From IMG/VR virus record IMGVR_UViG_3300031519_004866: a DNA stretch of 64,000 bases; one strand, 5' to 3'. This DNA is from a virus. The stretch's first letter is position 1. Each line of letters opens with the position of its first letter. A program made the translations under genes and the position numbers. This document shows, one piece after another, positions 624 to 59,358 of the stretch. Under the pieces are notes generated by a model. That model ran no database searches, was not told where the DNA came from, and worked only from the letters and a program-made list of their open reading frames with translations.

Positions 624-1103
624 CTATGTTTTGGGTTCTTCTTTAAAAAACTCATTTAATGGTATATTGTATTTAATACTATCTATCTTATGGACCCCTA
701 GTAAGTGGAGTACATAACTAGCTACGCTACTACCTCTACCAACACCCCAAACAATATTGTGTTGTCTTAGTGTGTCTATTATATATACCATTTGTTTAAG
801 TAGTGGAAATAAATTTCTGTTTTCAAATTCTGTTAATTCAATTACTGCTCTTTGATATTGTTCTTCGTTCTGTGTCTTTGATAGTACAAAGTCAATGATA
901 TTCATGTCTCTATATTTTTGAGGCACGAACCAATTAGAATGATCGATATCAGTCTTAGGTAATGGGTAATCTAAGAATTCTTGAGAGATTCTGTTCTTGT
1001 AAACTGTAAGGTCATCGTTACATATACAGTTTTCTAAGATGTTAGGACCATATTTTACTATGCCCTTAATTAGTTGTTCAGTAGTATTTGTTTTAGTCCA
1101 CAT
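624..1103 (-). CDS. dnaE: Stand-alone fragment of DNA polymerase III alpha (DnaE) polymerase domain
   Basis: WGVGRGSSVASYVLHLLGVHKIDSIKYNIPLNEFF matches DnaE motif G.GRGS.AGSLVAY.L.IT.IDP..Y.LLFERF; only 159 aa, ends before catalytic PDxDxD. Confidence 0.8.
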   Translation of the reverse strand: MWTKTNTTEQLIKGIVKYGPNILENCICNDDLTVYKNRISQEFLDYPLPKTDIDHSNWFVPQKYRDMNIIDFVLSKTQNEEQYQRAVIELTEFENRNLFPLLKQMVYIIDTLRQHNIVWGVGRGSSVASYVLHLLGVHKIDSIKYNIPLNEFFKEEPKT

Positions 1104-5366: not shown

Positions 5367-7319
5367 CTATACCAAGTTAACCCAAGCACTATCTTCATAG
5401 CCTTGAAATTTATTATCAGTGGAATTGTAAATAACCATTCCATTTACCGCAGCTAGTGCATTACGCTGTGTGGTAGTTAAACTGCTAAACTGTACAAAGC
5501 CTGTGCTAACTATGTTTCCTGCGTTAATTACTGGAGCAGTTAATTCGTTTTGTACACTAACATCACTGCTAAACACTGTCATTGGTGTAACAGTAATTGC
5601 ACTACTATCTGCACTGTCAATTAAGTTTGTAAATATGTTTCCAGTGTGTGTTCCAATAACATCGCCGTATATTTTATTTTCGACCGAGTCAATAATCTTA
5701 GTAGAGTCATCACCAAATACACTACCTTTTATATCGCCTGTATGATAACCTGTTGAGTTACCTGTTAAGTTACCTACAACATTACCTGTTACATCACCTG
5801 TTAATGAAGCAATCACTTTGTTATCAACTGCATCAATCATGAGCGTTGAATCGTCTGCAAATAAACTTCCTGTTACATCGCCTGTAATGCTACCAACAAA
5901 TTGATTTGAATATACAGTATTAAATGGACTTGAAACTGATCCAATTGTAGTACTAAGCCCTGATGGTAATATTGATGTAAGAACTATATCATTTCCAGAA
6001 GTTGCAATAGGAACACTATCAATGTATAACGGTCCTTGCGTATCTACTGGACCAACAATTTTCGACAACACCCCATCAATAAGTAATGCACTGTCATCAC
6101 CAAATACACTACCGTTAATATCAATTTCTTTGTTAACAGTAAATATTAACTTGTCATTGATAGTATCAGTAGTAATAGTAATTCCATACCCATTTTCAAA
6201 CGTTAAAATATCAGCAGTATTATCTGCTGCAATGTTTGTTTGTCCATCGACTGCAATTTGTTGGAATGTTGGTACAGCTGGCGCCGAGTTTGAAACAGTT
6301 GCAACACCTGTTGCACCATCTGTTGAAACTGTAATACCAAAACCTTGTTGTACTTCTAGTACACCTGTGTTAGTAAACTGTACTGCGCCAGTTGTTGTAC
6401 TAACTGTAACACCTTCTCCCGGTGTACGTCCTGTTGCTCTAGCTGGAATGTTAGTTGTATTTTGTGCAGATGTAACACCTGTGTTAGTAATAGTTACATT
6501 GCCTGTTGCAGAACTAACTGAAATACCTGTACTAGCAATAGATTGTGTTACACCAGCATTAATAAATGTAATGCTGTCTGCATCACTACCTGCAACTAGT
6601 TGAACTCCCGTTCCACCGTAAAACGATAGTGTATCGTTAGTGTGATCAGCTTCAACAATGTCGCCATCGTCTAAGTTAATGTATCTAAAATATCTTTTTT
6701 CAGGATCAATAATTAAATCGCCTGCAATTGTTGAACCAAAAGGTAAATCAACTTTTCCTGATTCTCCTTTAATACGAGCTGTTCCTAAATATAATCCGTT
6801 ATCTTCTTGTCCAGCTACTTGTAATGTTTCAGCAATGTGTGCTTGTTTCCATTTGTGTGTAGCATCGCCAAATACATAAGTTGCATCAGTTCCTGGCTTA
6901 ATTGAAGTTGTTAATGCTTCAAGGTTAAGAGCACTAAACTCTAACAACGGTTGCGCTAATCCACTACCGGTATATGCGCCAAATCCTGTGCCGTCGGTTG
7001 GAGTAGATATTCCTGCATCGCTAAACAATCCAAACGCGATATTTGAAGCAACATCAACAAAAAATGTTTGTCCATTAAGTTGAGTCATACCAGCAGCATT
7101 TGTAATTGTTACACGCTGCCCGTCAACTAATCCGTGTGCTGCTGAAGTTGTTACTATAACTGGACTTGCTTGAGTAGCAGAAATAATAGACTTTTGCTCT
7201 CCCCCTGCAAGTGTTGCACCAATGGTTACAAAGTTTGCATTAACTTCATCTAATGCTTTTCTAAAGCTATCCCAAACTAGTGGAGGATTACCAGGTTGTA
7301 TGTTTGAATTATACGCCAT
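5367..7319 (-). CDS. Tail fibre/spike-like protein with FCCH-like domain and GSVFGDDS repeats
   Basis: ISATQASPVIVTTSAAHGLVDGQRVTI module; three GS(V/L)F(G/A)DDS repeats; C-terminal 'RNALAAVNGMVIYNSTDNKFQGY...WVNL'. Confidence 0.75.
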   Translation of the reverse strand: MAYNSNIQPGNPPLVWDSFRKALDEVNANFVTIGATLAGGEQKSIISATQASPVIVTTSAAHGLVDGQRVTITNAAGMTQLNGQTFFVDVASNIAFGLFSDAGISTPTDGTGFGAYTGSGLAQPLLEFSALNLEALTTSIKPGTDATYVFGDATHKWKQAHIAETLQVAGQEDNGLYLGTARIKGESGKVDLPFGSTIAGDLIIDPEKRYFRYINLDDGDIVEADHTNDTLSFYGGTGVQLVAGSDADSITFINAGVTQSIASTGISVSSATGNVTITNTGVTSAQNTTNIPARATGRTPGEGVTVSTTTGAVQFTNTGVLEVQQGFGITVSTDGATGVATVSNSAPAVPTFQQIAVDGQTNIAADNTADILTFENGYGITITTDTINDKLIFTVNKEIDINGSVFGDDSALLIDGVLSKIVGPVDTQGPLYIDSVPIATSGNDIVLTSILPSGLSTTIGSVSSPFNTVYSNQFVGSITGDVTGSLFADDSTLMIDAVDNKVIASLTGDVTGNVVGNLTGNSTGYHTGDIKGSVFGDDSTKIIDSVENKIYGDVIGTHTGNIFTNLIDSADSSAITVTPMTVFSSDVSVQNELTAPVINAGNIVSTGFVQFSSLTTTQRNALAAVNGMVIYNSTDNKFQGYEDSAWVNLV

Positions 7320-10300
7320 TATGTTCTCCCTACCGCTACTTCAATGGTTCCAATATGATCGCTATCATATGTTTCTAATGCTTTACCAATGATAGTTCCT
7401 GCTCTAACATCACCATCGGCTGCAATTCCTACTCCGTGTATTGCTGCTGTCACTATCAAATCGCCTTTGTTAATTTTACCAACTACTCTAACTGGAATTC
7501 TGCCTTGTAATCCAACAAGGTTTTTAAGTCCAGGACATGCAGTATACATAACATATGCAGCTCTATCTGAAACAACGCCTGCTACTCTTGTATCAGCATA
7601 TCTATTAGATGTAGTAACTTCCTTGTCACCCCCAAATACTAACACTGTACCGACTTCGTATTCCTTGTCACCCTCGTAGTATTCAGCAAGGTCAGCAGCA
7701 TAAGTTGCTTCAAACCTTGATTCGCTTGGTGTTGTTCCTGTTAATGACCAACGTCCTGTAATTGTACCTGCTGTAGTATTACCACCAGTAGTTAACGCAG
7801 TAGTAAGTACTTGTGATGTTTCAATTGGAGCAAGTGAAACACCGCTTTGTGTTCTAAATCTGTGGTAATCGTTATCATAAAAGTTACGTTTATCAGATGC
7901 TAACGAACCTGTTTGTAAGTATAACCCACCACTACCGCTTGATCCTGTATAAAGTCTTGTGTAACTAGCAGTACCAGATGTACCATGCGCCATTGTTGTG
8001 TTGCCGCTGACTGTAAACGAATTTGTAGCGTTCCATATTCTTGCACTAGCATCTGCGTTACCGTCTCTTTGTATCAATGTACTTGAAGTTGAATTTGATG
8101 TTGCTTCAATTATGCTATAATCAACATCAGCAGTATTACTAGATCCACTAATTCTTCTTAAGAATCCTGTACTACTATATTGTGTTTTCTTAATAGCACC
8201 ACCGTCATCAACAATAGTAGTAAATGTTACATCGGCTGGTGTTGCAGGAGCAAGTGTGTTATTACCAATTACAGACTTAGCAGCAACATTTGTTAGTTTT
8301 GATTTTGGAATAGTACTGTTTGTAATAGTTACCCAACCGTCAGTAACAGTAAAGTATGTATTATCAAGTGCTACAATGCCTTTTTCTGCTTGTGTAATGC
8401 CAGTTGCATTTGCTCTTGTTTGGGCATTGGCCATAGCTAACTTACTTTGAGCAATCGCTGCTGATGCATTAATATCATTGTTTAAAATAACACCTGGTTG
8501 TATCTGTGCATCAATTGTACCAAGTGTTGAGTCTATGTCTAATGTAATATCACCAACTACTGTACTGTTAATAGCATCGTTACCGTTGCCAGTAAACACT
8601 AAAAGATCATTTGCTTTAAGGTTAGTAACTGTAAATTCTTGTAAGTTAGTAAATGTTAAACTTCTAAGGTTAACACCGTCTGTTGGTTGTGTAGGATCTG
8701 CAATATCAATAATCTTTTGATTACCTAGCGACATTGGAGACTTCATAGACAACGACCCGTCTAGAGCCATAAAGCCACCACTAATTGATGGTATTAAGTT
8801 AGCTTGTGTAATAGGAGCACCACTATGCGATGTACCTAGTCGTCTTTCCATATAAAGTCTTGTTGCGTTCTCTGTTGGAACAGTATCAACAGCGTTATCA
8901 GTAAATGCTGAGTCTGTTGAAAATTCACTAACTGGAACACCACGTTTAAATCCAATACCGTCCAAGTTACTCAAAGCAATAGCTGCTGAGAATGTAACCT
9001 GACCTGTACCTTGGTCAACTCTAAAGTATGGTCCAACGTTGAAGTTACCAAATTGGTCAGTGGTTACATAGAACACACGTCCCACTGTACGTTCATCAGT
9101 TTCAGTGTCAGGGTTAAATGCGTTAACCGGTGGTCCATAAATTTCTGTTGGATAGTTTGTATCAGCATATGAGCCAGTACCAATCTCAAGTAAATCGTGT
9201 GATGTAACACGAGTCAATGAAATCCTAATTGTTAGCTTACCTCTAGCACCAAGCGACCCTCTACGCACCGCTGATTTAATAGAGTATGTTGCTTCAAACT
9301 GTGTTAAGCTATCTACTAATGGACGGTCAAGTGTAAGTCTGCCCCATGGATTACCAGTTACAGTTTCATCTTCGTAGGTGTCAATTACATATATTTCACC
9401 GTTCCATACAAATGTACTACCTGCTACTCTTGATCTTTCTTGCGGTGCAACAGCAACAACTGCAAAACTACTATCTCCTACTGCCCCTGTTGGAACATGA
9501 TATGTATGTGTACCTGTTTGTGTGCCAGTTGTGTCAACTTGAACAGCGCCTGCTAGTGTTGGATATCCAACACTTACTGTAAATGTGTTTGAATCTAAAA
9601 CTGTGTGTACAAAGTAATGGTTACTTGTGTTTAACCCTGTTGGCAATGCGCCTGTGGTGTTAAGAGTAATTGGGTCACCTTGACTAAATCCGTGGCTGGA
9701 TTTTGTAATCACTCCTGGACTTGCAACCGACACTGTAAATGTCTGTGTTGTAGCAGCTTTTGCTTCACCTGGTTTGTAAACAGTTAAGTCAATGTAGTTA
9801 TAGTTTTCTCTAAGTGTTGTTCTAGTAAGACCTTCAATAATCGCACTATGCGTACCAGTACCAGTATTAGTAATTTCAACTGGCCCAGCTCCGTTAATAA
9901 TATTTGATATTTCAAAAGTTGTTGCAGTTAGATTTTCTTCTCTAATCCAATACGTTTCACCTGCAGTGATTCCTGCTGGTAATGTATTACTTGAACTAAA
10001 ACTTAGTCTATAGTTGTATAGTAGTTTGTGTGGAACAACTACTTTTAAATTAGGAGTTGCATCTGATAGTGTTACTGCACTACCGCCTGCAGATGTACTT
10101 AAAACAACGCTAGTATATGCTGGTACGTCGATAACATGGTATGTTGTACCGCCAGTTAATCCACCACCAGAGCCGTCTGGAACAATTGTATCTCCAACAA
10201 CTAATCCGTGATTCTGACTAAATGTTGCTACATTTCCGCTTGATGCAGTTGTTGATATAGTTGCTTTAAATGTAAACACACCAGGATTAGTAGCAGTAGC

Positions 10301-14563: not shown

Positions 14564-14877
14564 TCTCAATCACACAGTCAGCTATCGACCACATGTCGAC
14601 TCTGATCACTGAACAAGGCCAACCTGTCGTCCGACTTCAAGTCAAGGGCGGCGGGTGCGCCGGATTTCAATACGAATGGAAGATGGAAGATGCTGTTGAA
14701 GCGAATGACGAAGTTATTGACTTACCCAATGGCAAGTTTGCTATTGATGAGTTTAGTGTTATGTATGTCGCTGGCACTGAAGTTGATTTTGTTAAAGAAG
14801 TTTTTGGATCTCAACTTGTAATTAGAAATCCTAATGCAACATCAAGCTGCGGCTGCGGCGAGAGTTTTGCTGCCTAA
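14539..14877 (+). CDS. iscA: Fe-S cluster carrier IscA/ErpA/HesB family
   Basis: GGGCAGFQY and C-terminal CGCGESF; start uncertain (14539 or 14593). Confidence 0.92.
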   Translation: MDNLEKRLVSITQSAIDHMSTLITEQGQPVVRLQVKGGGCAGFQYEWKMEDAVEANDEVIDLPNGKFAIDEFSVMYVAGTEVDFVKEVFGSQLVIRNPNATSSCGCGESFAA

Positions 14878-15891
14878 GTAATGCTCATACAATTTAATAC
14901 TCGCTAAATTCTTACATTTACTTTCACACATAATATCTGCATAGTCTAAGAAACTTAATGCCCAGTCATTAACTTTATCATTAGGATAATAATCACTGTG
15001 CGCTCTTAGTTTACCTTTTTTGTAGCCTTGTTCTAATAGTACAGGCATATCAGGCATAGTGTCATGTGCAAAGCCTTCAGGCAAGTGTTCTGTTCTGCTG
15101 TAGCTGTAATGCATTGCAGGACGTACACCGCGCCAACTATCAACTATGCGTTTAAATCTATCATCGGTGGGTAAAATATATTCACCTTCTCTTGCCCAGT
15201 GATGGTGTATGTCGAGTACAAGTGCGCAGGTATTGGCAAGCTCAAGACTGTCTGCGATTCCCCATTTGTTTTCGTCGTTCTCGATCGTAATAGTGTTTCG
15301 CGCCTCTTGAGAAAGTCTGTTGTTGACTGCATGTTTAATACCGGCTGGACCTTGCCTGCCTGATATATGGACGTTGCACTTGAAGTCTTGGAATGTGCGT
15401 CCATAGCCCATCCAGCGGATGACATCGGTGTGATATTCAAATTCTTCTATGCTCCTCTCTACTATTTCCGGACTATCTGAAGCAAGGACTGTAAATTGGC
15501 CTGGGTGCATGGAGAGTCTAACATCGAGGGCTCTTGCTTGTTTGCCAACGTTTGCAAAGTTTTTCTCACAGTACGCAACAACATCCGGCTTGCGCCAAAA
15601 ATAAGACCACTCATGCTGAGTATACACAGGAAGTACATCACTACCAAGTCTAACCATTCGTAATTCATTTGGTAAACCTCCAACATATGTAATTAGGTTC
15701 ATGTACGATTGTACATTATGAACCATAATATCCCACAACCGTTCTTCAGCAACTTCACGGGTTTGTCTATTAAGCCACTGTACTGTTGTACTTTTTGTAT
15801 TTAGTGGCCGCTGAATTTCTTCTAATACTTTCTTAGTCTGTGTTTGGTCCGGGTGCATGTATTTACATGCGAAGCCTATACGTTTAATCAT
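14842..15891 (-). CDS. uvsE: UV damage endonuclease UvsE/UvdE
   Basis: RIGFAC, RLSMHPGQF.VL.S, NVHISG, TIENDE, LDIHHH, HSDY, MCESKCK motifs. Confidence 0.92.
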   Translation of the reverse strand: MIKRIGFACKYMHPDQTQTKKVLEEIQRPLNTKSTTVQWLNRQTREVAEERLWDIMVHNVQSYMNLITYVGGLPNELRMVRLGSDVLPVYTQHEWSYFWRKPDVVAYCEKNFANVGKQARALDVRLSMHPGQFTVLASDSPEIVERSIEEFEYHTDVIRWMGYGRTFQDFKCNVHISGRQGPAGIKHAVNNRLSQEARNTITIENDENKWGIADSLELANTCALVLDIHHHWAREGEYILPTDDRFKRIVDSWRGVRPAMHYSYSRTEHLPEGFAHDTMPDMPVLLEQGYKKGKLRAHSDYYPNDKVNDWALSFLDYADIMCESKCKNLASIKLYEHYLGSKTLAAAAA

Positions 15892-23570: not shown

Positions 23571-23599
23571 ATTATATAAGCCTAGACTGTGTTTGTCAA
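23571..23599 (-). promoter_or_regulatory. Consensus sigma70 promoter for Hc1-like gene
   Basis: TTGACA-N17-TATAAT, perfect match. Confidence 0.85.
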
Positions 23600-53454: not shown

Positions 53455-53985
53455 TTACATTAATCCTTCTTGTCCTAATAGTTCAACATTTTCATCTGTT
53501 AGCGGAATTTCAGTCTTGACCATTAATTCAAAGATCTCTTCTTCAAGTGCTTGTCGACTCATTGTAAGACTGCCAACTTCTGCTTTAGCTTGTTTAATTT
53601 GTTCTAATGATACAACACCTGTACTTACGCTTCCATCTACTTCGTCTAAATAGCCTTTGAGCGCATCAGGGTCTGTTAGCGGAATTGCATCTGCAATCTG
53701 TTTTACCTGTGCAATCCTATTATCAACAAACCCAATCTTAGCTTGTGCAGTAGTAATACCACTACCTGCCATAGCTTGTGAAACTAGTGCTGCAATATTG
53801 TAATAGGTTTGAAGTAGACGTTGTCTACGCTCGTCAGTTTTAAAAAGTGTTTCGTTAGCACTTTCAAGTGTTTTAATAATATCATCGTCTTTCTTAACTT
53901 CGTGTGAAAAGTTAAGGTGTACAGAATCAATATGTCGCTTAATACTATTCTGTAAATGTGTTGCTTTGCGAATGCTCAGTTCCAT
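53455..53985 (-). CDS. Hypothetical coiled-coil protein
   Basis: Start revised to 53985 (SD GGAGG). Confidence 0.75.
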   Translation of the reverse strand: MELSIRKATHLQNSIKRHIDSVHLNFSHEVKKDDDIIKTLESANETLFKTDERRQRLLQTYYNIAALVSQAMAGSGITTAQAKIGFVDNRIAQVKQIADAIPLTDPDALKGYLDEVDGSVSTGVVSLEQIKQAKAEVGSLTMSRQALEEEIFELMVKTEIPLTDENVELLGQEGLM

Positions 53986-54268
53986 AATTATCCTCCTCGT
54001 TAATTGCTGCAATTAGTTCTTCTTCAGCATTGTTTACAAGACCATTATAATGATCTTCGGTATACATACCAAGTGCAATTTCTTTTATTGCAATTGTTGT
54101 AACTTTTTGGCCAGGATGAATTTCTACCCTAGGTGCAGATCCTTGCTGAAGTTCTCGAGCTCTTTTTGATGCCATCAAGCACAACAAATGTTGATTATCT
54201 ACAGCATCGTGTGCTGCCTGATGTAGTGTATATGCTTCACGTTGTTTTTGGTCTGCTACAGTAGCCAT
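53945..54268 (-). CDS. rpoZ: RNA polymerase omega subunit homolog
   Basis: N...L..MASKRAREL..G..P.V......K.TTIA..EIA.G matches RpoZ core (E. coli NRFDLVLVAARRARQMQ.GG..P.V...NDKTTVIALREIEEG). Confidence 0.8.
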   Translation of the reverse strand: MATVADQKQREAYTLHQAAHDAVDNQHLLCLMASKRARELQQGSAPRVEIHPGQKVTTIAIKEIALGMYTEDHYNGLVNNAEEELIAAINEEDNYGTEHSQSNTFTE

Positions 54269-54299
54269 AATTTAATTCCTTTATATTTGTTACAATATC

Positions 54300-54328
54300 A
54301 TTGTAGCACGTTTTAAACAGTATGTCAA
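54300..54328 (-). promoter_or_regulatory. Sigma70 early promoter for rpoZ homolog
   Basis: TTGACA-N17-TACAAT with TG extension. Confidence 0.8.
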
Positions 54329-54332
54329 CATA

Positions 54333-54944
54333 TCATTTAGCAATAAGTTTAGCATCCCATGCCAAAATAGTTCTACAACCTTGACCGCTCCATGGATACA
54401 CTGTGTGCGGTATGTAACTTGGAAAAATAATCATTTTTAATGGCTGCGGTTTAAATCGCCATTGATCAGTAAACACAAAATGTGCTGGATTTCTAATTAC
54501 TGGTAATCTAAATTCAATATTTGCATCGCTTGGCCTAGCGTTTTCTTCTAGTAACGGTATGTCAATATAAATGTTACCACTAATGTGTGCTTCATGACTG
54601 TGAAGTGCTTGGTAGTCCCCGCTTTCTTGTTTAATAGTCCATGCTGAAATTAATACAGGATCATATCCATATAAGTCACCAACGCCACTAGTTTTAATAA
54701 TGTTAGCAATATACTCTTTACAGCGATTCTCAACAAAGTCTTTTAGGTGTGTAGTATTCAACCCAAGTTCGTTTGGTAACAACTGTATTTGTTGCCCACC
54801 TCTAATGCTAATCTCAGGATTGCCTTCATCGTTCTTTTCGCTGTGTTCGTGAGCAGCATCTGTTAGTGCTTTTAGTTGTGAATAATCTCCTGACGGAACA
54901 TCGTCAACTGCCATCACTGTTGGATTAAAATATGCAAACTTCAT
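54333..54944 (-). CDS. Putative 2OG-Fe(II) oxygenase (TIGR02466-like)
   Basis: SAW..KQ..GDYQ.LHSH...SG.IY, IFPS.I.H.V.P, R...AW. Confidence 0.75.
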   Translation of the reverse strand: MKFAYFNPTVMAVDDVPSGDYSQLKALTDAAHEHSEKNDEGNPEISIRGGQQIQLLPNELGLNTTHLKDFVENRCKEYIANIIKTSGVGDLYGYDPVLISAWTIKQESGDYQALHSHEAHISGNIYIDIPLLEENARPSDANIEFRLPVIRNPAHFVFTDQWRFKPQPLKMIIFPSYIPHTVYPWSGQGCRTILAWDAKLIAK

Positions 54945-55543
54945 TATACATTTAACCTTGTTAGAGTTTGACCGTTAATTTGACCTTTGACAAACGTGTT
55001 AAAACTTAGTGTAATTCTAGGTGTTGTTCCTGTGTACGACTGTACCAAGTGTTCCATGCTAGAAGGAAAAATTAGCATTGTACCAACTGTCGGTTCAACT
55101 GACCAACTTTTACTGTTCCACAAGTTTGGTTCTGTGATTTCAAACTCTAGTGTGTCGTATGCACCTGTAATGAAGCTAGTATGTCCGCCTTGCTCTGCGT
55201 CACCACTAAGGAATACAATTGCAGAAAGTACTGAGTTAGGATGCCAATGTCTATGATGTGTTTGATTAGTTTCTGTTTTATTAAACCAAGACTCTGTAAT
55301 GTAAATTTCTGTTACAGGGTCAACATGCATAACGTCATAAAAGTAATCGTGTATACCTTTCATACATTCTTCTTTAAGTTTCTTAAAGTTATCATCATCT
55401 AGCACTGTTTGACTAGTACTAATGTTGTTATGATAGTTAGGCACCCATTCAATTTTGCTTATGTCTGTACCTTCTAAATCTACTGTGGTACGTATAACTG
55501 TTTTAGCAAACAGTGGATATACTTCTAAGTTTTCGTTGTTCAT
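54944..55543 (-). CDS. Putative 2OG-Fe(II) oxygenase (TIGR02466-like)
   Basis: SW.N......HH.H.HPNS.LS...FL, IFPS...H.V, R.TLSFN. Confidence 0.82.
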   Translation of the reverse strand: MNNENLEVYPLFAKTVIRTTVDLEGTDISKIEWVPNYHNNISTSQTVLDDDNFKKLKEECMKGIHDYFYDVMHVDPVTEIYITESWFNKTETNQTHHRHWHPNSVLSAIVFLSGDAEQGGHTSFITGAYDTLEFEITEPNLWNSKSWSVEPTVGTMLIFPSSMEHLVQSYTGTTPRITLSFNTFVKGQINGQTLTRLNV

Positions 55544-56184
55544 GTTCTTTCCTTTGGTATCATTATCCTGTCTATGTTTCTTTCGCAGATATCTACAACT
55601 ACATAATCTAATTTGTTTTCTAGATAGTCGATAGCATAATGTTGTTGCTGAAAGCGAAGTGCTTCGTCAGGCGCAGCTTCGCAAATAATTAGTGGTCTGT
55701 ATTTCTCAATAGTTTTTAACGCTCCTTGGATGATATCATATTCAAAGCCATCAGTGTCTATTTTAATGTAGTCAATATTAGGAAGATTAAAACTATCTAA
55801 CGTATAAGTTTTAAGTTCGCTTTGGCCAAATGTTGTATCTAATCTTGGGTACTTGTTTTTAGTATTTCCTAGACAACATGTAAAGTGCGTAACTTTTTCT
55901 TGACTTACATTTCTAGGAAATAGTTTACGCTTACGAGGATCAAAACAAAATACATGTTCAAAGTCTTCTTGTAGATAACGAGTAAATTCACCATCTCTAC
56001 AACCAATGTCAACTGCATTGCGTCTTGAGTGTATGTGTGGAACACTCTTAACCCAAGTTAATTTACAATGATGATTAGGAAACTCTTGAATGCCATCCGT
56101 GCTATGAAAGAAATCTTTATCATACCATGACGGATCATAGATGTACTGTTCTGGTAAAAATTCTGTTATAGATACTGGGTACAT
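55540..56184 (-). CDS. FkbM-family methyltransferase
   Basis: VDIGCRDG, TLDSF.L..IDYIKID.DGFEY..I.GA; start revised to 56184 (longer start overlaps tRNA). Confidence 0.8.
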   Translation of the reverse strand: MYPVSITEFLPEQYIYDPSWYDKDFFHSTDGIQEFPNHHCKLTWVKSVPHIHSRRNAVDIGCRDGEFTRYLQEDFEHVFCFDPRKRKLFPRNVSQEKVTHFTCCLGNTKNKYPRLDTTFGQSELKTYTLDSFNLPNIDYIKIDTDGFEYDIIQGALKTIEKYRPLIICEAAPDEALRFQQQHYAIDYLENKLDYVVVDICERNIDRIMIPKERT

Positions 56185-56202
56185 TATAATCCTTTTATTA
56201 TA

Positions 56203-56278
56203 TGGTGCCGGCAGCAAGATTCGAACTCGCGACCTATGGTTTACAAAACCATTGCTCTACCAACTGAGCTATGCCGGC
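56203..56278 (-). tRNA. trnT: tRNA-Thr(UGU), CCA encoded
   Basis: GCCGGCA TAGCTCAGTTGGTAGAGCA ATGGT TT-TGT-AA ACCAT AGGTC GCGAG TTCGAAT CTTGC TGCCGGC A CCA, 76 nt cloverleaf; TAAATA 7 nt upstream. Confidence 0.95.
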
Positions 56279-56958
56279 GTCTTGTTATTTAACTCCCATG
56301 CTGTTACATCAGCAGGAGAATTGATTTCTATTCCGTTAAAGTCCACACAACTGCAACCTATATCCCAGCCTGCTTTAAGCCAACGTAACTGTTCTAGTTT
56401 TTCAACCTGTTCTTCTTGTGTAACTTCCATGCCTTTATAGAATAATAACGGATTGCGTTTGTATCCGTAAATACCTAAATGCCAATGTCCGTATCCAGTT
56501 AGTCCTCTACCAAACCACAGAGCTTTGTCACCAGCACGTACCATCTTAACTGAGTTAGGATCGTCTTGCATTGCTTTAGGCATTTCTGCGTATACTGTGC
56601 TTATTTGATAATACTTGAGCCATTCTACACAACGTTCAATCATTTGTAGTGTTACATCAGGCATATCGCCTTGTACATTAATAAATTGATCGTACTCATT
56701 AAAGAAGTCGTTTTGTACTGCGCCTGCAACACGTTCTGTGCCGTTGTCGTAATCTTTTTCATCAATCCAGCAGTTATCCGGGCCAAACAAATTAAAGATA
56801 CGCATGTCATCTGTTAGTACATATGTTGGTATCTTAGACGCAACACAAGCGTCATACACACGTTTAATCATAGGAACTCCATCTAACATAGCAAGAGGCT
56901 TTCCAGGGAAACGTGTGCTACCGTAACGTGCAGGTATTAGAATAGCAGTGTTAGGCAT
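56269..56958 (-). CDS. kdsB: CMP-KDO synthetase
   Basis: IPARYGSTRFPGKPLA, NGTER, INVQGD.P, VK.V, H.GIYGY, E...EKLEQLR.L, I.S.ADV; start 56958 (SD AGGTGA). Confidence 0.93.
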   Translation of the reverse strand: MPNTAILIPARYGSTRFPGKPLAMLDGVPMIKRVYDACVASKIPTYVLTDDMRIFNLFGPDNCWIDEKDYDNGTERVAGAVQNDFFNEYDQFINVQGDMPDVTLQMIERCVEWLKYYQISTVYAEMPKAMQDDPNSVKMVRAGDKALWFGRGLTGYGHWHLGIYGYKRNPLLFYKGMEVTQEEQVEKLEQLRWLKAGWDIGCSCVDFNGIEINSPADVTAWELNNKTPA

Positions 56959-57229
56959 TAACTTCACCTACTGTAACTACATTATCCCAACGAAAGCTGC
57001 GCCAGCCTTTTGCATTGATATCCCAAACAATTTGTACTTCTGGATTAATAGCTCTTATTTTCTTTAGTGATGCTGGGTCTTGCTTAGTTGCAGCAGGAAC
57101 AACACCTTCTTTAAGTGTACAAGTCATTACTCGTTTGTCACCATTAATCTTAGTAAATGTTACTACAACTTCTTCTTTTAAAAGTTTAGGAACTGTTTGT
57201 TCTTTTAGTTCTTTAGCTTGGTCTTTCAT
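56951..57229 (-). CDS. SH3-like WYL/DUF2693-type phage protein
   Basis: V.FTK.NG..R.M.CT ... VWD....GWRSF. Confidence 0.72.
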   Translation of the reverse strand: MKDQAKELKEQTVPKLLKEEVVVTFTKINGDKRVMTCTLKEGVVPAATKQDPASLKKIRAINPEVQIVWDINAKGWRSFRWDNVVTVGEVNA

Positions 57230-57239
57230 AAGTTCTCCT

Positions 57240-57407
57240 CTACCATAACCCTATAGTTTTTCCGTTTCCAATAATAATGAAAAAGCAGGTTACGATGTGT
57301 ATGATCCACCAAAAGGTTCGTACCACCGCAACCATGTCAGCTTGACTATCAGTCTCGCCTACTTTTTCACCCAGACTTTTAGCCCAGATTCTCCACACCT
57401 TCTTCAT
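57240..57407 (-). CDS. Small membrane protein (55 aa)
   Basis: MKKVWRIWAKSLGEKVGETDSQADMVAVVRTFWWIIHIVTCFFIIIGNGKTIGLW; ATGA coupling to HD gene. Confidence 0.75.
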   Translation of the reverse strand: MKKVWRIWAKSLGEKVGETDSQADMVAVVRTFWWIIHIVTCFFIIIGNGKTIGLW

Positions 57408-57928
57408 ACATCTCCTGTGATGTACTTGTTAACAATATCAAATGCTTTTGCTCTGAGACTTGCATCTCCTTTGTCCATAACATCTAACAATAATTTCTTT
57501 TCTTGCATAAACACTTTGGCAAAGCTAGGATCATGTTTGATGATACTAGATGAGTTAGCAATTAAATCGGCGTACTTGATAGTCTGCGCATCAGCAGAAG
57601 CAGCAGCAGAGTGATCTCTATCTTTTGCTTTTCTTACAGCTCTATTACCGTCTTCTGGTGTAGAGATATCTGTAAGATCTGATACAAGTGCAGCAACCTT
57701 TTCGCCAAATGCTTCTGTAATAAGCTCGATGCTTGTAGGAGTATCCTCAACTACATCGTGCAATACAGCAGCCATTAACATTTCAGTCGAGTGGGGAACA
57801 GTCCGTACAATACCCATAACTTCTAATGGGTGACCGATGTACGGAGCACCAGTGTACTTGCGCTTTTGCCCTGTGTGAGCAACAGTAGCAAGATGAATAG
57901 CTCTGTCTAATGGGCGCATAATGCTCAT
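57404..57928 (-). CDS. RelA/SpoT-type HD hydrolase (small alarmone hydrolase, Mesh1-like)
   Basis: AH.GQ.RK....PY..HP..V, AAVLHDVVEDT, V..LTD, IK.AD...N. Confidence 0.88.
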   Translation of the reverse strand: MSIMRPLDRAIHLATVAHTGQKRKYTGAPYIGHPLEVMGIVRTVPHSTEMLMAAVLHDVVEDTPTSIELITEAFGEKVAALVSDLTDISTPEDGNRAVRKAKDRDHSAAASADAQTIKYADLIANSSSIIKHDPSFAKVFMQEKKLLLDVMDKGDASLRAKAFDIVNKYITGDV

Positions 57929-57960
57929 ATCATACTCCTGTTCTGTTTGTTTATACTATG

Positions 57961-57989
57961 ATTATACAATCTATCAACTAGAATGTCAA
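57961..57989 (-). promoter_or_regulatory. Consensus sigma70 early promoter for HD hydrolase operon
   Basis: TTGACA-N17-TATAAT, perfect match. Confidence 0.85.
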
Positions 57990-58222
57990 GCAAATTTTAA
58001 TAAAAAAATCATCTTTTCTTGGTCTGTTGAGAACTCAGCTGTGAGTTTGTATATATGGCCGTACGAGTAATCGTCAGCATTTCTTGTCCACTTTATTCTA
58101 GCGTTGTCCATGCAATATTTGCCAGCGGGTGTTTGCTGCCATTCGAATATTGCTGATTGAGCATAAAGATCTGGATCTTCAACATCGCCCATTTTGAATT
58201 CATGTACAAGTGTGCCAGCCAT
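57986..58222 (-). CDS. Hypothetical phage protein
   Basis: F.M.DVEDP.LYA...I.EW; TAATG coupling. Confidence 0.72.
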   Translation of the reverse strand: MAGTLVHEFKMGDVEDPDLYAQSAIFEWQQTPAGKYCMDNARIKWTRNADDYSYGHIYKLTAEFSTDQEKMIFLLKFA

Positions 58223-58509
58223 TAATCACCAGTAAAGTCGAAGTCTTCTCCTTCGGGTCCATATTGATTCATTAAGATGTGTTTACCAATTTCAAACAAC
58301 CCAACGCCGCCGGCAATATCACCAACGCTGGTCCAAATAACAGCATTACCTGATTGATCTAAACTTGCGCCAACAAATTCGATAATTTCACCGTCTTTAA
58401 CTCGTTTGCGTAGTGAGTCAACTATCTCCAATCGACTTTTAATATCGTCACTAAGCTCTTCTTGACTGTTGTTGAAACTAACAACTTTCATATCTACTTC
58501 CTTATCCAT
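58222..58509 (-). CDS. Hypothetical phage protein
   Basis: Coupled ORF with SD. Confidence 0.72.
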   Translation of the reverse strand: MDKEVDMKVVSFNNSQEELSDDIKSRLEIVDSLRKRVKDGEIIEFVGASLDQSGNAVIWTSVGDIAGGVGLFEIGKHILMNQYGPEGEDFDFTGD

Positions 58510-58524
58510 GTAGCAAATTCCTTC

Positions 58525-59082
58525 TTATAGGATATGATCCGCAATTTTAAGTTTGATCAGATCTTTTGCGGTGTAATACTGATCACTTGGGCTATCAAAA
58601 TATTCTTTAACTTTTGCTAAACTATATCCTGTAGCGTCTCTTAGAATGTGTAAACTACGATACTCGCAGTTATTATTTTCAATCATAGCTGACTTCATGT
58701 CGTGCAACTTTGATTCTATATGATCTGAGTGTTGATGATTCATAATACCTGTGTTCTTACCAATGTATCTATGTCCTTGTTCACCACTTGCAAATATTAA
58801 AAACCCTGCACTCATAACAGCACCAACACCGTATGTTGCAATGTTATGCCTACTTTGTTTCATAATATCAATAAGTGCAAATGCTTCATATACTTCGCCA
58901 CCATAGGTGTTAATATACAGTTTTAGAGTACGTTTTGGTTTAATCTTTAAGTTTGCACTTAGTATCCATTTGATTGCTGGTGCTACTGTTTCAGCACTAA
59001 TGTCTCCGTTGAGATAGAAAATATCGTTGTCTACTAGACTTTTGTCTATAGCGTCTGATGCTGTCCAGTTGTCATATTGCAT
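58525..59082 (-). CDS. clpP: ClpP-like protease subunit
   Basis: LYINT.GG.V, MSAG (Ser), M.HQ (His), D..Y.A (Asp); TAAATA at 59112-59117. Confidence 0.88.
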   Translation of the reverse strand: MQYDNWTASDAIDKSLVDNDIFYLNGDISAETVAPAIKWILSANLKIKPKRTLKLYINTYGGEVYEAFALIDIMKQSRHNIATYGVGAVMSAGFLIFASGEQGHRYIGKNTGIMNHQHSDHIESKLHDMKSAMIENNNCEYRSLHILRDATGYSLAKVKEYFDSPSDQYYTAKDLIKLKIADHIL

Positions 59083-59329: not shown

Positions 59330-59358
59330 ATTGTAGCATAGTTGCTAATTGATGTCAA
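59330..59358 (-). promoter_or_regulatory. Sigma70 promoter, leaderless geometry
   Basis: TTGACA-N17-TACAAT, then 6 nt, then ATG(59323). Confidence 0.72.

Follow-up and report, generated by a model that had tools for sequence, protein, structure and literature searches.

Among the genes of marine T4-like phages are small ones resembling host genes, to which a role in resetting starvation physiology or a place within host machines is ascribed; MazG of cyanophages has been proposed to lower ppGpp, and Pelagibacter phage HTVC008M encodes the ribosomal protein bS21. Equally, phages direct early products against the RNA polymerase (RNAP) of the host, with Alc, AsiA, gp33, gp55 and RpbA of T4, Gp2 of T7 and P7 of Xp10 being phage-invented binders or sigma-like factors. 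In bacterial chromosomes, the gene order gmk-rpoZ-spoT places the omega subunit of RNAP near a ppGpp hydrolase. GafA, an activator of the gene transfer agent of Rhodobacter (RcGTA), binds omega directly and shows that a virus-like element can use omega for regulatory docking (PMC9638019). Alarmone signalling is targeted by stand-alone small alarmone hydrolases (SAHs), of which PaSpo of Salmonella phage SSU5 neutralised all five toxic small alarmone synthetase (toxSAS) toxins tested (PMC7229694) and strips the tRNA 3'-pyrophosphate installed by FaRel2 (10.1101/2024.07.05.602228). Here, a stretch of 64,000 nucleotides of viral DNA (IMG/VR virus record IMGVR_UViG_3300031519_004866), referred to as the window, is analysed, which encodes an SAH together with a homolog of omega (RpoZ) that overlaps a gene for a helical protein designated X. 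Omega and SAH belong to protein families other than MazG and bS21, and, in contrast to the T4, T7 and Xp10 products, with which the omega-X pair presumably shares an early, RNAP-directed role, the phage of the window encodes a homolog of a core subunit.

The reading that is given somewhat better than an even chance considers these as two independent early host-takeover genes, namely a PaSpo-type SAH and an omega that would dock on the beta-prime subunit of the host and work with X, with the loss of the N-terminal Met-Ala-Arg (MAR) motif of omega as a clade-specific extra. The omega open reading frame (ORF) of 107 residues (53945..54268, minus strand) matches PF01192 (RNA_pol_Rpb6; E 1.6e-9, 38 bits versus a cut-off of 26), and phmmer connects it to 20 distinct omega sequences of the PDB at E <=0.002, the closest being omega of the Pseudomonas aeruginosa RNAP (7f0r/7xl3; E 2.3e-6). 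In an AlphaFold2 model, the core reaches a predicted local distance difference test (pLDDT) score of 83-92, and the 50 best PDB matches of this model in Foldseek are all RNAP omega chains (probability 1.0, template modelling score by target up to 0.82), with 30-40% identity to the nearest solved bacterial omegas upon structural alignment. The gene is under purifying selection with a ratio of nonsynonymous to synonymous substitution rates (dN/dS) of about 0.15-0.25. Shared with bacterial omegas are the K/R-R-A-R-E helix and the A-I-x-E-I-x-x-G motif, and because these conserved core helices are kept, the phage protein most likely docks on host RNAP, where it would replace the omega of the host. 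Proteobacterial RpoZ, as in Escherichia coli and P. aeruginosa, has the PF01192 core and the fold in common with the phage protein, which differs by T, D or E at the position of Arg3, by a 10-residue insertion, by a signature of its own following the core (Y-T-x-x-H-Y; in the family G-[LFMK]-Y-T-x-x-[HDE]-[YF], absent from the compared bacterial omegas) and by an acidic C-terminal tail with H-x-Q-S-N-T at its end, the last 10 residues of which are near-invariant across the clade (E-H-x-Q-S-N-T-[LF]-T-[EK]). The post-core signature and the end of the acidic tail are candidate interaction surfaces.

A phage-encoded omega appears to be undescribed, as the 50,697 phage genomes on deposit yielded none and full-text literature searches did not retrieve one either. 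A tblastn search of these phage records gave no genuine phage match; the only two hits were contigs labelled 'Acinetobacter phage MD-2021a', which were rejected as pieces of a bacterial chromosome with gmk-rpoZ-spoT, pilus genes and ispH. Records of this name (L037, CAKLQH020000003.1 146742-154897) give false phage matches for host genes. A word-indexed search detected five close omega clusters, all within syntenic phage contigs, and an omega profile searched against 1.84 billion representatives gave 152 matches at E <=0.001, five of them at <=1e-10. By these searches the family is diverse and metagenome-only, with contexts that are phage-like wherever checked. In a quick tree, built on 99 columns only and thus of limited support, phage-context omegas cluster (a 10-row set with a Shimodaira-Hasegawa-like approximate likelihood ratio test (SH-aLRT) value of 91 inside a 24-row set with 86) and lie apart from the main proteobacterial group that holds Acinetobacter rpoZ. 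As to a bacterial donor, the scan of genome contigs provided only distant bacterial omegas (38-50% identity over about 45 residues) and one phage contig, so that no lineage can be named. This phage contig (L023, NYWG01000195.1, 9.4 kb) belongs to the clade of the window, carries SAH, omega and X and was binned into a 'Verrucomicrobiales' metagenome-assembled genome, which is either a mis-binning or a hint to the host.

With respect to gene order, the consistent partner of omega is the adjacent X and not the SAH. The start of X (about 176 residues, 53455..53985, minus strand) lies 41 nucleotides before the omega stop, and the overlapping two-gene unit is probably translationally coupled. A protein X of about 175-190 residues is encoded downstream of omega in 9 of the 10 checked lineages, in eight of them overlapping or abutting. 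It directly follows omega in the clade of the window (including L023) and in the lineages P0007 (contig L017), P0008 (L018), P0009 (L033, L034), P0019 (L035, L036), P0020 (L041, L042) and P0036 (L043), while the genes on either side of omega-X differ among lineages. On contig L019, X is located 1.2 kb downstream of omega with tRNAs between, both genes lying inside a 20-gene tRNA cluster; contig L016 alone shows no X and stops 650 bp past omega. In the distant lineage represented by L018, the ORF upstream of omega (2-343) resembles the DnaK/Hsp70 C-terminus, as judged by eye from the translation.

X itself could not be assigned to a Pfam family, and tblastn gave no match for it among isolate phages. 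With a dN/dS of 0.03-0.06, it is the most constrained of the three proteins X, omega and hydrolase, and it folds confidently as a helical protein (AlphaFold2 pLDDT 88). The fold search gave no informative PDB match, the best being 3kdq, a protein whose function is not known, with a Z of 10.1 as is common for helical bundles. Clear structural relatives in BFVD are all uncharacterised viral proteins, including one from Caulobacter phage CcrColossus that a profile of the X alignment locates at gp272, and viral members make up 79-100% of the atlas clusters that hold X-like proteins. Neither sequence nor fold similarity of X was found to T4 Alc, AsiA, gp33, gp55 and RpbA, T7 Gp2, Xp10 P7 or GafA. 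As X occurs without omega on contigs L021 and L022 and in CcrColossus (gp272), X does not need omega, and any dependence would be that of omega on X.

The omega N-terminus deserves separate consideration. Ala2 and Arg3 of E. coli omega contact the 5'-diphosphate of ppGpp in site 1 (PMC13192712), and the MAR motif is cited as the determinant of this site (PMC6416229). In the window, the N-terminus reads M-A-T-V, and relatives within the clade have M-A-D-L, M-S-E-I or M-P-E-L, with the consequent loss of Arg3. A conserved insertion of about 10 residues follows residue 4 in this clade, in which Q9, E11 and Y13 are invariant, and in the AlphaFold2 model residues 4-22 form a single continuous helix that displaces the N-terminus. 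Taken together, the loss of Arg3, the insertion and the continuous N-terminal helix make the loss of site 1 a reasonable expectation, and these changes would probably cripple ppGpp site 1 in the clade of the window. An intact MAR N-terminus (M-A-R-V/I) is, however, present in 5 of the 10 checked phage omega lineages (P0007, P0009, P0019, P0020 and P0036), and several further members of the same tree group, with unchecked context, also keep it. Removal of a ppGpp site can therefore not be the general reason for a phage to encode omega; loss of MAR together with the insertion would rather be secondary and specific to this clade, where it may add to the action of the hydrolase without being the reason why the genes exist.

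The hydrolase (57404..57928, minus strand, 174 residues) consists of an HD domain only, matching PF13328 (HD_4; E 1.9e-17, 63.9 bits versus a cut-off of 27.2), PF01966 and phrog_990 (4.5e-40), and the synthetase domain PF04607 was not matched in the Pfam search. The catalytic set H33, H57-D58, E61-D62 (HDxxED) and K118/D121/N125 aligns with the catalytic positions of Rel and Mesh1, and Rel, Mesh1 and SAH structures are matched at E 1e-14 to 1e-11. Identity to SSU5 PaSpo (SSU5_099) amounts to 45% over 154 residues (E 3e-41), and it is this identity, not hidden Markov models of RelA/SpoT homolog (RSH) subfamilies, on which the designation PaSpo-like is based. Like SSU5 PaSpo, PbcSpo ATfaRel and the PVP-SE1 SAH, the hydrolase is a stand-alone HD_4 protein without synthetase domain; it has the catalytic residues, the location on a phage and the absence of a toxSAS gene alongside in common with SSU5 PaSpo, from which it differs by a shorter C-terminus (174 versus 213 residues), by its origin from a marine jumbo myophage, by its early sigma70 promoter and by substrates that are predicted only. 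The flanking ORFs (57986-58222, 58222-58509 and 57240-57407) match no Pfam family and lack a RelA_SpoT synthetase domain, and since no synthetase gene adjoins the hydrolase, the locus is not a toxSAS-SAH type IV toxin-antitoxin pair. With SAH relatives in 279 phage records, many of them jumbo phages, the hydrolase, which is under purifying selection (dN/dS 0.13-0.18), is by homology ordinary among phages and adds a marine example to an established group. Early in infection it probably hydrolyses alarmones and/or tRNA pyrophosphates: (p)ppGpp, (p)ppApp and possibly pyrophosphorylated tRNA ends would most likely lose their 3'-pyrophosphates, which would blunt starvation signalling and/or toxSAS-type abortive defence.

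Both genes possess a sigma70-type promoter in the intergenic gap directly upstream, together with an AGGA/AGGAG ribosome-binding site. The hydrolase promoter (57989..57961, minus strand) reads TTGACA-17-TATAAT and matches the consensus at 12/12 positions, and the omega promoter (54328..54300, minus strand) reads TTGACA-17-TG-n-TACAAT with an extended -10 TG and matches at 11/12. In relatives (L001, L005, L006 and L008), the hydrolase promoter is TTGACA-17-TATTAT and the omega promoter in relatives is TTGACT-17-TATACT with TG, the -35 and -10 positions of both staying fixed though the spacers have diverged. The window contains 12 sites with a match of >=11/12 versus 3.4 +/- 1.9 expected (maximum 7 in 100 first-order Markov simulations), and this enrichment together with the positional conservation makes both promoters credible as early promoters. 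They are, however, not peculiar to the omega and hydrolase genes but two of a dozen, as near-consensus sigma70 promoters precede many early units, for example at 59358..59330 (TTGACA-17-TACAAT with TG) and 23599..23571. T4-type late promoter signals are also present in the phage, and the combination of sigma70-type early and T4-type late signals implies use of the host RNAP.

The source of the window is identified, by gene homology, as a T4-like myophage of marine origin, uncultured and with Methylophilales phage Melnitz and HTVC008M as relatives, since tail-fibre and baseplate PHROG matches are present and its CHASE2 cyclase is 69% identical to the Melnitz and 48% to the HTVC008M counterpart. 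Near-identical relatives sit on metagenome contigs of 240-338 kb (L001-L004 on contigs of 240-310 kb, and G001-G003), and CheckV rates fragments of 47-107 kb as only 13-31% complete; thus, the genome is probably jumbo with about 340 kb, of which the window shows 64 kb, and would exceed that of Melnitz (141 kb) more than twofold. A megablast comparison of the region with phages gave nothing beyond tRNA-Thr matches; the gene order of Melnitz around the shared cyclase bears no relation to the omega/hydrolase region, and neither omega, X nor HD_4 was found in Melnitz. At least 14 studies have near-identical sequences in their marine and brine metagenomes. Such sequences are present in metatranscriptomic libraries as well, of which contigs from four studies cover omega, X and the hydrolase, with one contig spanning the omega/X junction. 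As these data are contigs and DNA carry-over is possible, they demonstrate presence and not transcription. Individual sets of such contigs leave parts of the region uncovered and some contigs cross predicted promoters, but transcript starts, strand or level cannot be revealed by them and nothing is concluded from the coverage pattern.

Between 51.7 and 59.1 kb, every gene is located on the minus strand, and seven genes and one tRNA separate the hydrolase from omega. Following the hydrolase, whose stop is overlapped by a 55-residue ORF (57240..57407; phrog_1679 2.2e-15, without Pfam family), are a WYL_2 (Sm-like SH3 barrel) protein of 92 residues (56951..57229; PF10902 1e-11, phrog_1086 7.4e-20), a cytidylyltransferase of 232 residues resembling CMP-sugar synthetases (56269..56967; PF02348 6.5e-22), a tRNA-Thr (UGU) with encoded CCA (56203..56278; ARAGORN, Rfam RF00005 76 bits), an FkbM-type methyltransferase (55540..56217; PF05050 1.9e-12) and two tandem 2-oxoglutarate-Fe(II) oxygenases (54944-55543 and 54333-54944; PF13759 1.3e-18 and 2e-13). 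The position of the tRNA-Thr is kept in relatives, which add a tRNA-Ala(UGC) and a 125-residue ORF, both missing from the window (tRNA sites of L001 at 7310-7385 and 7792-7867). That this tRNA-Thr could be an escape variant versus the toxSAS FaRel2 was rejected, as its acceptor stem carries all positive determinants (G1-C72, C2-G71, G4-C69 and G5-C68). A gene for a ClpP-like protease (58525-59082, minus strand; PF00574, 1.3e-24) is located just upstream of the hydrolase unit. Elsewhere in the window, a UvdE-type UV endonuclease gene (14842-15891, minus strand; PF03851 6e-39) and a 159-residue ORF (624-1103, minus strand) are present, the latter matching the NTPase-domain part only of DNA polymerase III alpha (PF07733, 5.9e-9).

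An earlier note on this DNA, made from the letters of the sequence, had described an rpoZ homolog and an HD-only hydrolase with HDxxED motifs and without synthetase domain, each behind its own near-consensus sigma70 promoter, and this description holds, with both genes real, intact and constrained at the coordinates given and both promoters conserved in relatives. The note had furthermore joined the two into one possible anti-stringent module that destroys the alarmone and removes its RNAP target, which would suit starved hosts. Spelled out, this would be a cooperating pair in which the SAH destroys (p)ppGpp while a MAR-less omega replaces host omega, so that site 1 is lost and phage transcription stays on in starved hosts. 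Such cooperation is considered unlikely, although several observations agree with it: the replacement of Arg3 by T, D or E, the conserved insertion and the modelled helix all affect the N-terminus, of which Ala2 and Arg3 contact ppGpp in site 1; every member of the window's clade that has sufficient flank possesses both the SAH and the MAR-less omega, each of them early (the window, L001-L006, L008, L012, L014, L015 and L023); and the neighbourhood of rpoZ and spoT in bacteria is a precedent for linkage of omega with a ppGpp hydrolase. In the window, omega is followed by X where bacterial rpoZ is followed by spoT, and the hydrolase is a phage-type SAH and not a long RSH. With seven unrelated genes and a tRNA between them and a separate promoter for each, omega and hydrolase do not look like a functional module. 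Co-occurrence across phages, the check proposed along with the module, is confined to this one syntenic clade, in which it reflects one inherited block and counts as a single evolutionary event, and is largely refuted outside of it: none of the 279 SAH-bearing phage records has omega, and L019 with omega and X has no SAH within 10 kb; for most of the remaining omega contigs, their short length prevents a verdict on the SAH. Of the proposal that omega removes the ppGpp target of RNAP, the part concerning the clade of the window is supported by the absence of Arg3, and its extension to phage omegas in general fails on the five lineages that keep MAR. In E. coli, the DksA-dependent site 2 carries most of the control of initiation by ppGpp, and losing site 1 alone would consequently have a modest effect; a DksA/TraR-type zinc-finger gene that would address site 2 was not found in the real ORFs of the window or of the fragments of three relatives. 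The alternative of the note, in which the hydrolase acts as an antidote to host defence, has no less support than the anti-stringent interpretation.

Other explanations separate the two genes differently. Extra omega supplied together with X could stabilise or assemble host core RNAP, favour the primary-sigma holoenzyme and boost the near-consensus sigma70 early promoters of the phage in slow-growing marine hosts, with the SAH as an unrelated anti-defence enzyme. E. coli and cyanobacteria that lose omega reportedly show a sigma usage shifted away from the primary sigma (PMC3147163, PMC3985657), which fits this explanation, as do the many near-consensus sigma70 promoters of the phage, the ordinary MAR N-terminus of many phage omegas as expected of a normal functional subunit, and the neutralisation of toxSAS toxins by SSU5 PaSpo; it is nevertheless judged quite improbable, because the post-core signature, the remodelled N-terminus and the tight pairing with X are left unexplained and a limiting supply of omega is not known for the likely hosts. 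Some jumbo phages encode multisubunit RNAPs of their own, and omega might not join the host enzyme at all but be a subunit of such a polymerase encoded elsewhere in the genome of about 340 kb, of which just 64 kb are covered by the window, or be a decoy that titrates an omega-binding factor of the host, as direct omega-binding regulators such as GafA of RcGTA exist (PMC9638019). A beta-prime catalytic motif of the NADFDGD type was found neither in the window nor in the fetched loci, nor was a PF00623 match in the fragments of three relatives or in Melnitz, a search that covered partial genomes only and does not show absence; the promoter signals that imply use of host RNAP and the kept core helices of bacterial omega equally speak against such a role, which is held to be very improbable. 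Even less credence, amounting to hardly any, is given to omega and SAH as passengers recently captured from a host and without function in infection. Both do have bacterial homologs, with rpoZ and spoT being neighbours in bacteria, but both are under purifying selection behind conserved promoters, omega has only 30-40% identity to solved bacterial omegas and <=50% over short segments to omegas of genome contigs within a phage family that is itself deeply diverged, the SAH is nearer to other phage SAHs than to solved Rel/SpoT hydrolase domains, and the phage is present in marine metagenomes of those 14 or more studies.

The favoured reading of two independent takeover genes, an SAH and an omega working with X, also has to be weighed against several points. 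X-family proteins are found without omega, and the pairing of omega and X could be a gene order that related marine myophages have inherited. Homology, fold, gene order, promoters, distribution and selection are observed directly, and from these the contacts of omega with beta-prime and with X, the loss of ppGpp binding and the substrates of the hydrolase are deduced. Furthermore, the host RNAP already carries an omega, the exchange of which during infection is an assumption, and the hydrolase and MAR-less omega coincide in the same clade, as predicted if the two were to cooperate. Should two independent takeover genes nevertheless be correct, the 4-kb stretch would be part of the early-gene region of a marine jumbo myophage of the Melnitz/HTVC008M type, and omega and X would together modify host RNAP, with either omega being the docking handle for X or the pair shifting the composition of RNAP towards early and late transcription of the phage. 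A further-reaching version, in which marine jumbo myophages swap a core RNAP subunit, with the phage omega displacing host omega and anchoring X and, in the clade of the window, the loss of site 1 together with the early hydrolase making phage transcription starvation-proof, is regarded as rather doubtful; if true, it would be the first phage-encoded bacterial core-RNAP subunit, equipped with a dedicated partner.

While phage SAHs are already known, the phage omega-X pair is the novel element of this locus. The finding also calls for caution, as the proximity of genes within syntenic early regions of phages can mislead into the assignment of functional modules. Omega is the least understood subunit of bacterial RNAP, and a viral version provides a natural experiment on its function, which bears on the weight of ppGpp site 1 in vivo and on the takeover of transcription by phages of slow-growing, nutrient-limited marine bacteria.

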